Source: a virus
Lineage: Duplodnaviria > Heunggongvirae > Uroviricota > Caudoviricetes
Strand: one strand, 5' to 3'
Length of the DNA: 8,537 bases
IMG/VR virus record: IMGVR_UViG_2681813314_000007
Below the pieces are notes generated by a model. It was not told the origin of the DNA. It made no database searches and saw only the letters and a list, made by a program, of their open reading frames with translations. The translations under genes and the position numbers were made by a program. Shown here in pieces: positions 3,083-8,537 of the stretch. The number at the start of each line of letters is the position of its first letter. Within the stretch, counting starts at the first letter, position 1.

Positions 3083-3605
3083 ACGAACCCCTGGCAGACA
3101 TTTGTTTATCTGCAAAGTAATATTGGTATTGCTGACGATACGCGTGCTTGAAAGCAATAGCTTTTTCTATAAGCTCGTCAGTCTCACGTTCCACAACAAC
3201 TGGATCCGCAAAAAGCAGCCCGGACTCCACCACATCGCCATATTCTTTGTTTAACCCGGCGATCATGTACGTAATGCTTTTTCCGTCAGTAATTTCACAA
3301 TACAATCTGAAATCGCTGATCCGGATAGCCTCCATAATTGCCGGAATCAGCGCCGTGAATTTGTCACGCTTATCTCTGGTGTCGATAGCTTTCCAGCGTT
3401 CGAATATCTTCACCCGGTTAACGCCCAGCGCCCGTTGATCAACCTCGCCATCATTAAACGTGACGCGTTGAACATCGATGTTCGGGCGTTCTTTCAGAGC
3501 CCAGAATGCTTCCGTGATTAATATCGTCGCCTGCTCCTGTGTCATTCCTGGTCGGCATACCCAGGTATCCAGAGCCTCACAAACCTGTTCAGTGGTGATT
3601 TTCAT
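3054..3605 (-). CDS. YdaT-family protein (occupies the cII position between the Cro-like and O-like genes)
   Basis: 183-aa ORF. Its start overlaps the dicC-like stop by 17 nt, suggesting translational coupling. An internal motif (DKFTALIPAIMEAIR) resembles YdaT-family proteins of Rac-type prophages. Family assignment is from memory. Confidence 0.7.
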   Translation of the reverse strand: MKITTEQVCEALDTWVCRPGMTQEQATILITEAFWALKERPNIDVQRVTFNDGEVDQRALGVNRVKIFERWKAIDTRDKRDKFTALIPAIMEAIRISDFRLYCEITDGKSITYMIAGLNKEYGDVVESGLLFADPVVVERETDELIEKAIAFKHAYRQQYQYYFADKQMSARGSYEYRCTTMG

Positions 3606-3816
3606 TGTTCAACCGCCCCGCCCGCTTTGCCTTACGATATTCGTCATAAACTTTGGGGTCGTACTGAAGTTCCCCGCCGGATGCCTCTTGCAGGCGCATC
3701 GCGCGACCTTCAGGAACCAGTTCCCCCCATGCAGCAACGCTTGCCAGCCTAACTCCTGCGACATTGGCAAGCTTTGTTTTGCTGCCAAAAAACGCTATAG
3801 CATCAATTTTCAACAT
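3589..3816 (-). CDS. dicC: DicC-like Cro-type regulator
   Basis: 75 aa, divergent from the dicA-like gene. SD AAGGGG 6 nt upstream of the ATG. Sequence (MLKIDAIAFFGSKTKLA...GRLNNENHH) matches my recollection of DicC. Confidence 0.8.
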   Translation of the reverse strand: MLKIDAIAFFGSKTKLANVAGVRLASVAAWGELVPEGRAMRLQEASGGELQYDPKVYDEYRKAKRAGRLNNENHH

Positions 3817-3892: not shown

Positions 3893-4300
3893 ATGAAAAA
3901 CGAAACCTTCGGTGCTCGCCTCTTATACAGGCGAAAAAAATTAAAACTGTCTCAGGCCGCATTAGGTAAGCTGGTCAAAGTGGCTCACGTAACAATTTCT
4001 CAATGGGAAAGAGATGAAACACAGCCAGCGGGGAAGAGATTATTCGCACTGAGCCAGGCGCTTCAGTGCTCGCCGACTTGGCTTCTTTTTGGAGATGAAG
4101 ATAAGCAACCAGGCGAACCGATCCCAGATAATCAGCCAGTCAATCTGACAGAAGATCAAAAAGAGTTGCTTCAACTGTTCGACGCACTGCCTGAGTCAGA
4201 GCAAAAGGCTCTGTTGTCAGAGATGCGTGCTCGAGTTGAGAATTTCAACAAACTTTTTGAAGAACTACTCAAAGCTCGCAAAAGAAGCGCAAATAAATAA
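3893..4300 (+). CDS. dicA: DicA-like repressor (Xre-family HTH; CI analogue of Qin-type prophages)
   Basis: 135 aa. N-terminal HTH (LSQAALGKLVKVAHVTISQWERDE). Strong resemblance to E. coli DicA, including the ...FALS.ALQCSPTWLLFGDEDKQP... and ...MRARV.NFNKLFEELLKAR... segments. Confidence 0.9.
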   Translation: MKNETFGARLLYRRKKLKLSQAALGKLVKVAHVTISQWERDETQPAGKRLFALSQALQCSPTWLLFGDEDKQPGEPIPDNQPVNLTEDQKELLQLFDALPESEQKALLSEMRARVENFNKLFEELLKARKRSANK

Positions 4301-4429: not shown

Positions 4430-4507
4430 TACTCATCAAGACACCGCACGGTGTTCTCAGCAAACAGTTCCGCTACCCGGCGTTAAGGGGAAGCAGAGGA
4501 TTTCTCA

Positions 4508-4864
4508 GTGGGCGAAGTCAAACATCAGAATGGAAGGCGTCCAGGGATCAGCAAAGAAACAGCGATGGCGCTTTATATTGATATCAGCGCCATTGCCGGA
4601 CAGGTAAGAGTTATCAGAGCGGTAACTAAGCGGTATGCGCCTTTACTTCAGAAAGTCTCTGGTGAGTGCACCGAAGATATTGTCAACGATTTCGTCATCG
4701 AACTGCGAGGACTCATCTTCAGTTACAAGGTGACCACAATTTTTGCAGATGGCTCCCGCGAAACTGTCAGAGCCCTGCGGCTTAAAGGATGTGTCAAAGA
4801 CTTAGCCACCACATTCTGGGCAAGAAAACTTGATTGTATTCATAACCAATTTCCTCTCGAGTAA
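4508..4864 (+). CDS. Hypothetical early-operon protein (GTG start; alternative ATG at 4565)
   Basis: 118-codon ORF. SD-like AGAGGA 7 nt upstream of GTG 4508. First ORF downstream of the putative promoter. No family recognised. Confidence 0.5.
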   Translation: MGEVKHQNGRRPGISKETAMALYIDISAIAGQVRVIRAVTKRYAPLLQKVSGECTEDIVNDFVIELRGLIFSYKVTTIFADGSRETVRALRLKGCVKDLATTFWARKLDCIHNQFPLE

Positions 4865-4936: not shown

Positions 4937-5155
4937 ATGCAGAAACGAGACCCCGTCATCATCGCGCCAGACTATACCGATGATGAACTTTATGAGTGGA
5001 TGCACCAGAAAATTAAGGCGGTGCAGGACCTGAAATGGGCCAATGAAGCCAGGGCTAAGCAGGCTGAAAATCTGTCCGCTCTGGAGCAGGATATCACCAA
5101 TCTGGAAAAAGCAGCGGCATTAAGCATTGCCAGAATGATTACATACCCACGTTAA
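4937..5155 (+). CDS. ydfC: YdfC-like small prophage protein
   Basis: 72 aa. Strong SD AAGGAG 6 nt upstream of the ATG. Length and position (between the dicA-like gene and dicF) match ydfC of the Qin dicB operon. The name is assigned by synteny and memory, not by a search. Confidence 0.7.
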   Translation: MQKRDPVIIAPDYTDDELYEWMHQKIKAVQDLKWANEARAKQAENLSALEQDITNLEKAAALSIARMITYPR

Positions 5156-5177
5156 TAGCTAACCAACGAGGCTAATA

Positions 5178-5585
5178 ATGGAATTTAAAGATTTACCAAC
5201 GCCATTACAGGAAATGGCATCGAATATAGTTCGTTCACAACTGGCTACTCTTGACCTTAGTACCGCAGAAAAAGAAACCATCGATAATATGGTTCGTAAT
5301 GTGCGCAATGCTTTTTCTGGGCTATATGGTTCTGATAATCAAAAGCAGGAAAGCGATGTTAATAAACGGGTAATTTCTGTTTGCGTGAATGGCCATGTTC
5401 TTTCATCAATCAAAACAGAAACGGCGACAGTCTTCGATTGCCTTTGCATTGTACAGAGCCTTGTTGATGCCCTGTTTCGTTCAGTGAATTTAGAAAATGA
5501 TGCAAATCTGCGAGGGCGCATAATAGCACATCCATATGCACATACTTTAGGCTCTGTGGATATCAAAGATCCCACAAATCTTTAA
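5178..5585 (+). CDS. Hypothetical protein, AT-rich accessory (moron-like) gene
   Basis: 135 aa. SD GAGG 6 nt upstream of the ATG. Markedly more AT-rich than flanking prophage genes. No recognisable domain and no predicted TM segment. Confidence 0.65.
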   Translation: MEFKDLPTPLQEMASNIVRSQLATLDLSTAEKETIDNMVRNVRNAFSGLYGSDNQKQESDVNKRVISVCVNGHVLSSIKTETATVFDCLCIVQSLVDALFRSVNLENDANLRGRIIAHPYAHTLGSVDIKDPTNL

Positions 5586-5796
5586 TGAAATAGTTAACGC
5601 GAATTGTACTTGCTCTTTCGGTTGCTTTCAGAATACGCGTTGAAACTGCTGGCGGTAATTTGGTATTCCATTTATTAAAATCATGCCCGGGAAAGTACTC
5701 TTCGAAAATACTTTTAACTGCAGACTCGCCTATTGAAATGCTGCTTACCATGCGATTTTGATAAAGGCATTTAGCAATAAGAGTTGATTTTAACAT
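5563..5796 (-). CDS. Hypothetical small protein, convergent with and overlapping the 3' end of the 135-aa gene
   Basis: 77 aa. Strong SD AGGAGG 4 nt upstream of the ATG (5794-5796). It is the only long open frame across an AT-rich stretch where stops should be frequent by chance. Overlaps the 135-aa gene by 23 nt. Confidence 0.5.
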   Translation of the reverse strand: MLKSTLIAKCLYQNRMVSSISIGESAVKSIFEEYFPGHDFNKWNTKLPPAVSTRILKATERASTIRVNYFIKDLWDL

Positions 5797-6129
5797 TCAC
5801 CCTCCTGAGGGTTGGTAATTAAGGAGTTCTCCACGGGTGAAGTGGAGTGCGTGCGCCGGACACGGGTGAACATCCGGCACTGACAGTTTACTGAAAGGAT
5901 ATTTCTCTGAAAAGTCAGACCATAACGCGAAAGCGCACGGCGAGGTAGCTGGTTCATAGATAGCCTGTCGTTAAATTTTCGTCGACCGTGCGCTTCCGGT
6001 TGTGGCAATCCGCGAAATGGCGCGGCGGTAAGTATGGAGGGGTTATTCCTTCCCCGTTGAGGACACCGGGTTGTCAGGTTGACCATACGCTTAAGTGACA
6101 ACCCCGCTGCAACGCCCTCTGTTATCAAT

Positions 6130-6187
6130 TTTCTGGTGACGTTTGGCGGTATCAGTTTTACTCCGTGACTGCTCTGCCGCCCTTTTT
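6130..6187 (+). ncRNA. dicF: DicF small RNA (53 nt plus terminator U-tract)
   Basis: The sequence TTTCTGGTGACGTTTGGCGGTATCAGTTTTACTCCGTGACTGCTCTGCCGCCC followed by TTTTT matches my recollection of E. coli DicF. GC stem GGCGG (6145-6149) / CCGCC (6177-6181) precedes the T-run. Sits immediately upstream of dicB, as in Qin. Confidence 0.85.
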
Positions 6188-6191
6188 AAAG

Positions 6192-6339
6192 TGAATTTTG
6201 TGATGCGGTGAATGCGGCTGAGCGCACGCGGAACAGTTAAAACCAAAAACAGTGTTATGGGTGGATTCTCTGTATCCGGCGTTAATTGTTAACTGGTAAA
6301 CGTCACCTGGAGGCACCAGGCACCGCATCACAAAATTCA
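6192..6339 (+). repeat. 19-bp perfect inverted repeat enclosing about 110 nt between dicF and dicB (candidate long-range RNA stem / RNase III processing site)
   Basis: TGAATTTTGTGATGCGGTG at 6192-6210 is the exact reverse complement of CACCGCATCACAAAATTCA at 6321-6339. The 3' arm ends 5 nt before the dicB SD (GAGGA, 6345-6349). Confidence 0.6.
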
Positions 6340-6356
6340 TTGTTGAGGACGCGATA

Positions 6357-6545
6357 ATGGAAACGTTATTACCAAACGTTAATACGTCTGAAGGTTGTTT
6401 TGATATTGGTGTTCTGCTCAGTAACCGGGAGTTTACGGAAGATGCCATTAAGATGAGAAAATATGAACCTTATCTTCTCAATGATAATTCCATACTTTCC
6501 AGAATTGCCCTTCTTGAACTTGGTATTATCGGAGAACAGCAGTGA
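6357..6545 (+). CDS. dicB: DicB cell-division inhibitor (MinC-dependent)
   Basis: 62 aa beginning METLLPNVNTSEGCF, matching my recollection of E. coli DicB. SD GAGGA 7 nt upstream. Located directly downstream of dicF. Confidence 0.9.
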   Translation: METLLPNVNTSEGCFDIGVLLSNREFTEDAIKMRKYEPYLLNDNSILSRIALLELGIIGEQQ

Positions 6546-6730
6546 CTTCAGCATTTGCACTGGTGATGACCGTTTTTCTTATAACGGGTGAGCCACAAAA
6601 TGTGATTACCGGAATTTATGACAGTAAGTCATCCTGCATTCAGGTAAGGGACGAACAAAAAATCCCCGGTGAATGCCTCCCGTTAAAAAAAGTATCGCTG
6701 AACCTGAATAACGAAATACCGGCTGGATAA
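6542..6730 (+). CDS. ydfD: YdfD-like small protein with hydrophobic N-terminus (lysis-associated in Qin)
   Basis: 62 aa. GTG start overlaps the dicB stop (aGTGA). N-terminus SAFALVMTVFLITGEP is hydrophobic and resembles YdfD. Position immediately after dicB matches Qin. Confidence 0.75.
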   Translation: MTSAFALVMTVFLITGEPQNVITGIYDSKSSCIQVRDEQKIPGECLPLKKVSLNLNNEIPAG

Positions 6731-6825
6731 CTCGCCAGCCATATTAACGCCATACCAACGGATTAAAAATGCCAGCAATGGCAGGGATTCGTTCACCCTG
6801 AAATCTGTAATGAGGTTAAAACAAA

Positions 6826-8537
6826 ATGAGTAAAGTCTTTATTTGCGCCGCCATTCCGGACGAACAGGCAATAAAGGAAGAAGGTGCCGTCGCTGTAGCC
6901 ACTGCCATTGAAGCCGGTGATGAACGTCGCGCCCGCGCAAAATTTCACTGGCAATTCCTGGAACATTATCCGGCTGCTCAGGACTGCGCTTATAAATTTC
7001 TTGTCTGCGAGGATAAACCCGGTATACCCCGCCCTGCCCTCGATTCCTGGGATGCTGAATATATGCAGGAAAACCGCTGGGATGAGGAATCCGCTTCCTT
7101 TATTCCGGTCGAACCAGAATCCGATCCGATGAACGTCAATTTTGACAAGCTGTCCCTTGAAGTACAGAACGCGGTCCTGGTTAAGTTCGGTACATGTGAA
7201 AACATCACCGTTGATATGGCGATTGACGCGCAGGAATTACTGCAGGAAGACGTTGCTACCTTTGACGGGCATATCGTTGAAGCACTGATGAAAACGCCTG
7301 AAATTAACGCTATGTATCCGGAACGCAAACTGTTCGCTATCGGATGGGTTAAACACAAATGTAATCCGGGTGCCAAATGGCCCGAAATTCAGGCTGAATT
7401 ACGTAACTGGAAAAAACGGCAGGACGCAGAGCGCAAAGAGACTGGAAAATACACGTCTGTTGTTGATCTCGCCAGCGCCAGAGTCAATCAACAGAACACT
7501 GAAAACTCAGCAGGAAAAATCAACCCAGTCACTGCCGCCATTTGTCGCGAATACAAGCAGACATGGAAAACGCTGGATGAAGAACTGGCCTACGCTCTCT
7601 GGCCTGGTGATGTGGATGCCGGAAACATTGACGGCAGCATCCATCGCTGGGCAAAAAATGAAGTTATCGACAACGACCGCGAAGACTGGAAGCGTATCTC
7701 GGCATCAATGCGCAAACAGCCTGATGCCCTTCGCTACGACCGCCAGACTATTTTTGGCCTTGTCCGTGAACGTCCGATCGACATTCACAAAGACCCTGTG
7801 GCACTGAACAAATACATTACTGAATACCTGACTACAAAGGGCGTGTTTGAAGATGAAGGAAGAAATCAGAGCGCAACTGATACTCTCTCGTCGCCAGTAC
7901 CAGAAACTGATGCAGTGGAAACGGCAATTCCGGGCAACGAAAAAACCGAATGCAAAGTGGAAGTCGAACCATCTGTAGAGCGTGAGGGGCCGTTCTACTT
8001 CCTCTTCACCGACAAGGATGGCGAAAAATACGGTCGCGCAAACAAACTTTCTGGTCTGGAAAAAGCACTAGCCTTGGGAGCTACGGAAATCACAAAAGAG
8101 GAATACTTCGCACGTAAAAACGGCACGTACTCAGGTTCACAACAAAATACTGGTGCATCTGACACGACCGCACAACCAGAGCCGGTAAAAGTTACCGCTG
8201 ACGAAGTAAACAAAATTATGCAGGCAGCCAATATCAGCCAGCCTGACGCCGATAAGTTGCTTGCTGCCTCTCGCGGAGAATTTGTTGCAGGGATTAGCGA
8301 CCCGAATGATCCGAAATGGGTAAAGGGGATTGAAACCCGCGATTCTGTAAACCAGAACCAGCAAGAATCGGAACAGAACGACCAGAAAGCGGAACAAAAC
8401 AGCCCAAATACGCAACAAAACGAGCCAGAAACGAAACAACCTGAGCCAGTAGCGCAACAGGAACCGGAAAAAGTCTGCACCGCCTGCGGTCAGACCGGCG
8501 GCGGCAACTGCCCTGATTGTGGCGCGGTGATGGGCGA
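6826..8537 (+). CDS. Large early-operon protein, 5' partial (at least 570 codons, open to window end); possibly YdfE/RecE-N-terminal-like
   Basis: Uninterrupted frame from ATG 6826 (in-frame stop at 6811-6813 just upstream; SD GAGG 10 nt upstream) to the last base. Not in the ORF track because no stop falls within the window. Translation begins MSKVFICAAIPDEQAIKEEG and ends ...EPEKVCTACGQTGGGNCPDCGAVMG. Contains a Q/N/E-rich low-complexity segment followed by a CxxC-x8-CxxC motif. The track ORFs in this span are alternative-frame artefacts. Confidence 0.85.
   Translation, partial: MSKVFICAAIPDEQAIKEEGAVAVATAIEAGDERRARAKFHWQFLEHYPAAQDCAYKFLVCEDKPGIPRPALDSWDAEYMQENRWDEESASFIPVEPESDPMNVNFDKLSLEVQNAVLVKFGTCENITVDMAIDAQELLQEDVATFDGHIVEALMKTPEINAMYPERKLFAIGWVKHKCNPGAKWPEIQAELRNWKKRQDAERKETGKYTSVVDLASARVNQQNTENSAGKINPVTAAICREYKQTWKTLDEELAYALWPGDVDAGNIDGSIHRWAKNEVIDNDREDWKRISASMRKQPDALRYDRQTIFGLVRERPIDIHKDPVALNKYITEYLTTKGVFEDEGRNQSATDTLSSPVPETDAVETAIPGNEKTECKVEVEPSVEREGPFYFLFTDKDGEKYGRANKLSGLEKALALGATEITKEEYFARKNGTYSGSQQNTGASDTTAQPEPVKVTADEVNKIMQAANISQPDADKLLAASRGEFVAGISDPNDPKWVKGIETRDSVNQNQQESEQNDQKAEQNSPNTQQNEPETKQPEPVAQQEPEKVCTACGQTGGGNCPDCGAVMG

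Follow-up and report, generated by a model that had tools for sequence, protein, structure and literature searches.

The early operon of dicB-type prophages of Escherichia coli carries, between ydfC and the gene for the small RNA (sRNA) DicF, a short AT-rich segment with two genes that face each other, and the question raised by this locus is whether these genes form a unit and, if they do, of what kind. The copy studied here lies in the IMG/VR virus record IMGVR_UViG_2681813314_000007 (Caudoviricetes), of which a stretch of 8,537 nucleotides (nt), hereafter the window, was analysed; it spans the early region of a Qin/dicB-type lambdoid prophage of E. coli. The segment encodes a plus-strand open reading frame (ORF) of 135 amino acids (aa), ORF135, and a minus-strand one of 77 aa, ORF77. 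A first-pass annotation, made from the letters alone, had placed the pair between ydfC and dicF in the dicB operon, and the annotations by the Prokaryotic Genome Annotation Pipeline (PGAP), Rfam and Pfam agree with this. The coordinates that it gave, its 23-nt tail-to-tail overlap (5563-5585) and both of its Shine-Dalgarno (SD) sequences hold as well: the SD of ORF135 is GAGG at 5168-5171, 6 nt ahead of the ATG, and that of ORF77 is AGGAGG (reverse complement of 5801-5806), 4 nt ahead of the ATG. The comparative data presented below are best explained by an accessory module of temperate phages that is complete in itself, moves horizontally and consists of two genes, locked tail-to-tail by a palindromic overlap of 23 nt.

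ORF77 is a real protein-coding gene. It matches phrog_10348 from end to end (residues 1-77 of 77, E 1.1e-47), and its close homologues (n = 33, 55-72% identity), almost all of them exactly 77 aa long, come from Klebsiella/Raoultella, Dickeya, Xenorhabdus, Salmonella, Morganella, Yersinia and Serratia, with further ones in Proteus and Photorhabdus. An exhaustive hidden Markov model search collected the family into 163 clusters at 50% identity, nearly all of standalone proteins of 74-78 aa. In pairwise comparisons the ratio of nonsynonymous to synonymous substitution rates (dN/dS) is 0.05-0.33 at saturated synonymous sites (dS >1), so that the coding-type conservation that the first-pass annotation had set beforehand as the test of the 77-aa frame was found, with homologues in at least eight genera. 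The protein is predicted to be small and soluble with an isoelectric point of 9.5, the grand average of hydropathy (GRAVY) of the two proteins is -0.13 and -0.17, and the AlphaFold2 (AF2) model of ORF77 is all-helical, with five helices and a predicted local distance difference test (pLDDT) score of 96.8. The lack of a strong promoter nearby in the window would fit a chance ORF lying antisense to the operon, a view that we consider already refuted, with next to no probability left to it, given the dN/dS values, the length kept across 163 clusters, the high pLDDT of the model, the PHROG match and the PGAP call.

The first-pass annotation was thus right to see two genes, and its picture needs correction on the plus strand, where ORF135 turns out to be composite: its N-terminal module is specific to E. 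coli and is joined to the true partner domain. ORF135 as a whole matches phrog_1363 (residues 1-130, E 4.8e-47). Hundreds of proteins from E. coli prophages, 106-212 aa long, share its N-terminal module and continue into unrelated C-termini; 420 IMG/VR stretches encode the module. The partner domain is homologous to standalone genes of 77-90 aa in other genera (phrog_23433), a family that matches residues 55-128 of ORF135 at E 1.7e-8 and the standalone partners at E 1e-17 to 4e-18, and its dN/dS is 0.13-0.5. The AF2 model of ORF135 is poor (pLDDT 43) and comprises a helical hairpin (residues 8-49), a linker, a beta-hairpin (64-80), a helix (85-107) and a disordered tail; such a pattern would suit a protein that needs a partner in order to fold, and a shallow alignment could account for it just as well. 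In Yersinia-type loci (L017 and L184), a YdfC-like domain (phrog_1744) precedes the partner domain in one fused protein, the L017 gene matching both phrog_1744 and phrog_23433, and in one IMG/VR locus (L177) a ClpX-type C4 zinc finger (PF06689, 34 bits) takes this N-terminal place. In E. coli and Proteus, moreover, the gene directly upstream of the partner is YdfC-like, a hint that partner and YdfC may be functionally linked.

Within the partner domain, residues 111-113 of the window's ORF135 (5508-5516) read GRI, with isoleucine where nearly all partner domains have threonine (RGRIIAH compared to RGRTIAH); this isoleucine allele of the G(K/R)T motif is the common O157/O145-type sequence. Two functional assignments for the domain were considered and rejected. 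An antiterminator like lambda N would suit the first position in a pL-type operon, but the partner lacks an arginine-rich motif and its charge is acidic to neutral, and a reading of the motif EANxSGKT as a Walker A P-loop fails on its spacing, on the small size of the domain and on the window's GRI for GKT.

The two genes are inherited together, as a unit, across genera. Every enterobacterial locus examined that has an intact ORF77 also has a partner-domain gene converging on it; the loci compared are those of Proteus (L003), Photorhabdus (L005), Dickeya (L008), Serratia (L009-L011), Klebsiella/Raoultella (L012-L013), Yersinia (L017), Salmonella (L018) and E. coli, and about 15 more distinct IMG/VR contigs. 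In the reverse direction, ORF77 lies downstream in 74 of the 80 partner-domain loci in IMG/VR. The overlap measures 23 nt; in the Yersinia type, whose ORF77 is longer by a single residue, it comes to 26 nt. It is 23 nt again in a distant pair (L270) whose ORF77 is 39% and whose partner is 25% identical (hhalign probability 97.9), and in a second distant pair (L268) the convergent arrangement is kept with an overlap of 75 nt; searches of IMG/VR with single distant members as queries gave nothing. Across 30 distinct versions, the overlap has the consensus TTAAAGAyyTtTGGGATCTtTrA, and because it is an imperfect palindrome carrying both stop codons, both proteins end in KD..L. No significant hairpin was predicted in the overlap and no terminator was detected between the genes. 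In Photorhabdus temperata (L005, 4001-4165), the ORF77 homologue is frameshifted to 54 aa and the convergent partner is intact; the partner is tolerated without ORF77, at least in this decaying prophage.

Neither protein matches a described family, just as the first-pass annotation had recognised no resemblance, and the only matches are to PHROGs without functional annotation. Scans of both proteins, of the standalone partners and of the alternative cargos described below against Pfam, NCBIfam and PADLOC gave nothing above threshold; in PADLOC-DB v2, ORF135 and ORF77 had no match at E up to 1, and a standalone partner had none. Pfam gave no match even with E allowed up to 10, and hence none to the SieB family PF14163; PDB sequences, searched with profiles, gave none either, and a structural search with the AF2 model of ORF77 found no relatives in PDB or BFVD and no DNA-binding fold. 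The accessions of the two proteins, WP_000394552 and WP_000920491, are not mentioned in the literature searched, and a published comparison of dicBF loci leaves the non-conserved genes uncharacterised (PMC5069750).

The segment is accessory and fits its site with base-pair precision. Aligned with BLAST to the Qin prophage of K-12, window positions 4937-5175 end at K-12 position 2562 and positions 5810-6999 start at 2563; the flanks are therefore contiguous in K-12, and the two ORFs fill a precise indel of 634 bp, the cassette. At 39.1% GC compared to 48.1% for the window, the cassette falls in the lowest 0.4% of all 634-nt windows, and the AT-rich composition noted at first sight is thus borne out by a windowed GC computation. 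When presence is defined as a coverage of 80% or more, the K-12-like empty junction is the commonest state among 5426 complete E. coli genomes (2745 of them) and the cassette occurs in 646; this ratio marks the cassette as accessory, as had been proposed. The dicF leader is found in 4316 of these genomes at 8995 places, so that the cassette is missing from most dicF loci as well as from K-12. Positions 5160-5800 of the window are 100% identical to chromosomes of O157:H7, O145, O26, O103 and O121 and to prophage records named "PPompW," and the cassette occurs in full length in 12 phage records, including Escherichia phage Evi, which is 93.8% identical to the window over the same positions.

The earlier description of the segment as an insertion is accurate as to the clean indel against K-12 Qin, and goes too far in two respects, in that the direction of the change is not established and in that the site is a polymorphic, multi-allelic slot, not the place of a one-off event. 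All alleles between ydfA/ydfC and dicF open with a plus-strand gene bearing the MEFKDLP module (IMG/VR loci including L014, L020, L021, L023 and L040-L105), and on the right side every allele has CCGTGGAGAACTCCTTAATTACCAACCCTCAGGAGGGTGAA followed by an ATG on the minus strand. This conserved minus-strand ribosome-binding site (CCTCAGGAGGGTGAA-ATG; window 5797-5840) precedes at least eight unrelated small antisense genes of 63-148 aa, or none. Besides ORF77, the cargos are of 63, 69, 73, 91, 92 and 100 aa, plus a protein of 148 aa with two transmembrane segments; the CCGTGGAGAACTCCTTAATTACCAACCCTCAGGAGGGTGAA leader is kept before the cargos of 63, 73, 77, 91 and 92 aa, and cargo and plus-strand gene overlap or abut by 0 to 77 nt. 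The cargos tested match PHROG families that lack functional annotation. We rejected the idea that they are remote homologues of ORF77, or that the other plus-gene C-termini are remote partner domains, at hhalign probabilities of 1.3% or less. In our best reading, the ORF77/partner module entered this slot and the partner gene then fused to the resident N-terminal module, giving ORF135.

Two other occupants of the region deserve mention. The 148-aa cargo at the IMG/VR locus L040 has a weak match to the DRT-associated SLATT model of PADLOC (PDLC03794, E 0.002, 15.9 bits) and may be an effector of the abortive-infection type. In another E. coli dicB-type prophage (L015, 2194-2672), a PaaA2/ParE pair lies between the DicA-like repressor and ydfA, so toxin-antitoxin cargo does enter the same operon region.

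The features of the window are collected in the table below. The interval from dicA to ydfC is a second variable segment of the operon, in which only about 60 nt around 4434-4492 match K-12 and in which K-12 ydfA and ydfB are replaced by the phrog_21318 ORF. A minus-strand ORF of 112 aa at 5790-6128, within the conserved dicF leader, was set aside as a likely chance frame, its length shifting with the choice of start across alleles.

Features of the window around the ydfC-dicF slot, with positions in the 8,537-nt stretch
Feature	Position	Strand	Remarks
P22-Cro-like gene	3589-3816	-	
DicA-like helix-turn-helix repressor	3893-4300	+	
phrog_21318 ORF (99/118 aa)	4508-4864	+	PHROG match, no functional annotation
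ydfC	4937-5155	+	PGAP name; phrog_1744; left neighbour of ORF135
Cassette	5176-5809		634 bp; missing from K-12 Qin; 39.1% GC
ORF135	5178-5585	+	135 aa; PGAP coding sequence WP_000394552, hypothetical
N-terminal module	5178-5342	+	ORF135 residues 1-55 (MEFKDLP...GLY)
Partner domain	5364-5585	+	ORF135 residues ~63-135; VNG...DY...LExEANxxG(K/R)TIxH...KDPxxL
3'-3' overlap	5563-5585		TTAAAGATTTGTGGGATCTTTGA on ORF77 strand; imperfect palindrome holding both stop codons
ORF77	5563-5796	-	77 aa; PGAP coding sequence WP_000920491, hypothetical
ORF77 leader	5797-5870	-	SD AGGAGG; predicted fold pairs the SD with upstream CUCCU
dicF 5' leader	5810-6130	+	conserved right flank of the slot; same sequence in K-12
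DicF sRNA	6131-6182	+	Rfam RF00039, 76.7 bits; right-hand landmark
dicB	6357-6545	+	PF05358
ydfD-like gene	6542-6730		DUF1482, PF07358

The first-pass annotation had reasoned that a minus-strand gene inside a plus-strand operon needs its own promoter; none is evident in the window, and a conserved promoter-like element with an extended -10 stands upstream of the non-E. coli homologues. At those loci, the promoter-like sequence TTTTCA-18 nt-TGgTATCTT lies about 35 nt before the ORF77 start, and the non-coding element about 60 nt upstream of the homologues in L003, L009, L012, L017, L018 and L172-L184 comprises TTTTCACCAC...GGTGGTATCTTGG (-35 plus extended -10) and an inverted repeat, TCTTGG-N13-CCAAGA. 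This repeat reaches over the -10, start site and SD, overlapping the promoter-like sequence, and may serve as an autoregulatory operator or form a leader hairpin. The non-coding element as a whole is very well kept across phages with different repressors. In the window, the shared flank of the slot stands where this promoter-like element would be. A minus-strand promoter-like site at 6265-6292, antisense to dicF, recurs with the same sequence in phage Evi (L187, 3500-3530); RNA started there would include anti-DicF sequence and then run into ORF77.

From the observed linkage, convergent geometry and accessory status of two genes with no known homology, we infer a timing of expression, an antagonism and a role in exclusion that together make up our preferred reading: ORF77 would be an accessory gene expressed in the lysogen and opposed by an early-lytic partner, in a geometry like that of lambda sieB and N. 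Its starting point is the gene order. In phages outside E. coli, and in most genera, the gene next to a CI-type repressor on its left is the partner, and ORF77 runs counter to the early operon in question; in E. coli ORF77 is likewise antisense within the DicA-controlled dicB operon, the equivalent of a pL operon. ORF77 would therefore be transcribed against the early operon and made in the lysogen while DicA or CI holds that operon off, and the partner would be made only once the operon fires. With no terminator between them, early-operon transcription would read antisense through ORF77, and ORF77 transcription through the partner; transcriptional collision and formation of RNA duplexes would then confine the two products to opposite states. 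ORF77 would be a protein of benefit to the prophage, most plausibly by interfering with phages that arrive from outside or with some process of the host or of a phage, and the partner an early-lytic counter-factor that gives the phage self-immunity. The polymorphism of the slot and its low GC suggest an accessory role of the arms-race type, that is, exclusion or interference. We hold this reading tentatively, as possible rather than probable. Taken further, ORF77 and its partner would make up an undescribed two-protein phage switch, in which the convergent palindromic overlap acts as a regulatory device, the two expression states are mutually exclusive, orphan-fold proteins antagonise each other, rivals are excluded with self-immunity, and the ydfC-dicF slot serves as an exchange hotspot; that all of these elements hold at once seems unlikely to us.

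Several observations weigh against our preferred reading. Concerning position, the flanking operons are oriented differently at two distant loci, so that the orientation antisense to an early operon is not universal. Concerning the pair itself, pairing is not absolute: of the six exceptions among the 80 partner-domain loci, five are E. coli recombinants of 201 aa with a different antisense gene and one, contig L261, has other cargo, and an ORF77 homologue from Psychrosphaera (43% identity) has no recognisable partner. Physical overlap alone could, moreover, explain the co-inheritance. Concerning function, ORF77 and ORF135 show no similarity to defence, exclusion, toxin or antitoxin families in Pfam, NCBIfam and PADLOC, and SieB proteins are membrane-associated, whereas ORF77 is predicted to be soluble. 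Concerning expression, there is no good sigma-70 match in the 120 nt upstream of ORF77 in the window, and the nearest minus-strand consensus match (6292-6265, TTAACA-16-GAGAAT) lies about 470 nt from ORF77, between dicB and dicF. The leader is predicted to fold at -23.9 kcal/mol (z -2.2) and to hide the SD, and ORF77 may therefore be poorly expressed in E. coli.

The same linkage and geometry would also serve a regulatory safety catch, in which the early partner is harmful, or decisive for lytic development, and ORF77 is a lysogeny-phase inhibitor, acting as protein and/or antisense RNA, that buffers leaky expression of the early operon and plays no anti-phage part. The module directly adjoins the immunity region in most genera and in E. 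coli lies upstream of the toxic dicF and dicB; the inverted repeat that overlaps the promoter-like element of ORF77 could be an autoregulatory site; and the fusions of the partner domain to the YdfC-like module and to the ClpX zinc finger (34 bits) suggest an effector or adaptor role. A core regulator is, however, not expected to be dispensable, whereas most dicF loci lack the module and the slot holds unrelated alternatives or nothing, and ORF77 matches no DNA-binding fold. We consider such a catch a rather unlikely explanation. A role as a toxin-antitoxin or abortive-infection pair, with the convergent overlap as a type I-like or hybrid device of reciprocal antisense control, was among the guesses of the first-pass annotation, together with a superinfection-exclusion gene and an anti-phage defence module; no observation marks the two genes as a toxin-antitoxin pair or as a known defence system. 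In favour of such a pair, two compact and AT-rich genes lie in tight linkage within a prophage early region, their 3' overlap would yield an RNA duplex, and PaaA2/ParE sits a few genes upstream in the same operon region of the L015 prophage. Against this, neither protein has a toxin or antitoxin domain, and the searches of PADLOC, Pfam and NCBIfam were empty; type II systems need co-transcription, and the genes here are convergent at all homologous loci, a layout unlike a type II operon; type I systems need a small hydrophobic peptide, and here GRAVY is slightly negative for both proteins and both strands are coding. In addition, the frameshifted ORF77 of Photorhabdus next to an intact partner, the 201-aa variants and L261 all show the partner without ORF77, so that, if there is a toxin at all, ORF77 must be it, and for the better conserved of the two proteins this would be unusual. 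On these grounds we regard a toxin-antitoxin or abortive-infection pair as very unlikely.

It may also be that the two genes are functionally unrelated accessory genes which share 23 nt at their 3' ends and which recombination cannot part without truncating one or the other. The same palindromic 23-mer encodes both C-terminal peptides, in the only separations seen, those of the 201-aa variants, the exchange of sequence falls precisely at the overlap, the early regions of lambdoid phages are strongly mosaic, and in E. coli the pairing of plus-gene C-terminus and cargo is loose, the 124-aa form standing alone or being paired with either the 73-aa or the 148-aa cargo. However, an accidental overlap should be lost or shifted over time, yet it is 23 nt in a pair that has diverged to 39% and 25% identity with saturated synonymous sites, and the flanking genes vary between loci while the pair stays together. 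An accident of shared ends strikes us as improbable, though not strongly so.

If our preferred reading of a lysogen-expressed ORF77 opposed by an early-lytic partner is true, prophage-encoded systems of phage-phage conflict would gain a new protein pair with new folds, and the fixed convergent 3' overlap would be a conserved design feature instead of an annotation curiosity. The slot itself is a multi-allelic cargo site flanked on each side by conserved translation signals; it lies within the dicBF operon in prophages of E. coli, among them those of O157, O145, O26, O103 and O121 Shiga toxin-producing E. coli (STEC). DicF sRNA and DicB affect cell division, metabolism and phage sensitivity, and antisense transcription from the slot could affect the processing or expression of dicF and dicB. 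Both families are labelled hypothetical in all sources examined, and the pairing rule offers an experimental handle even if the function turns out to be mundane. From a comparative point of view the pattern is clear and out of the ordinary, and its locus belongs to STEC prophages of medical relevance, beside dicF and dicB; yet uncharacterised prophage cargo is common.

Compared to known systems, the module shares its geometry with several and its full design with none of those considered. In lambda, sieB (34482-35036, plus strand) abuts N (35037-35438, minus strand) tail-to-tail, and the ORF77 pair is likewise convergent but overlaps by 23 nt; ORF77 resembles SieB in lying antisense to a pL-type early operon and converging on an early gene, a resemblance of position only, since there is no similarity in sequence or fold and SieB has about 160-190 aa compared to 77. 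In one Salmonella prophage, a SieB gene (PF14163) adjoins ORF77 on the same strand. In P22, sieB is a gene that the prophage expresses. Its control lies with the antisense RNA sas and its bypass with Esc, and it is countered once early transcription of the phage itself proceeds antisense to it (PMC12197685; PMC7067206). Esc is an in-frame internal product, whereas a counter-factor in the present module would be a separate protein from the opposite strand. An orientation against the lytic genes is described as typical of moron loci (PMC7067206), and the module is, like STMMW_20121 of ST64B and bstA of BTP1, accessory, compositionally distinct and set against the lytic genes. A promoter-like element precedes most homologues, and nothing convincing lies within 120 nt in the window; morons, however, are single genes with a promoter and a terminator, while the module is a two-gene convergent unit with no terminator detected. 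Lambda OOP and cII likewise show convergent transcription over the 3' end of an early gene (PMC7067206), although here both strands encode conserved proteins and neither a short non-coding RNA. The PHROG records phrog_10348, phrog_1363 and phrog_23433, which carry no functional annotation, hold nothing of the pairing, the overlap or the structure of the slot. Control by cis-antisense overlap at 3' ends is also seen in RalR/RalA of the Rac prophage. On this comparison, the module is most like the sieB/esc/sas arrangement and stands outside that family, distinguished by a strictly conserved convergent two-protein architecture and by its orphan folds.

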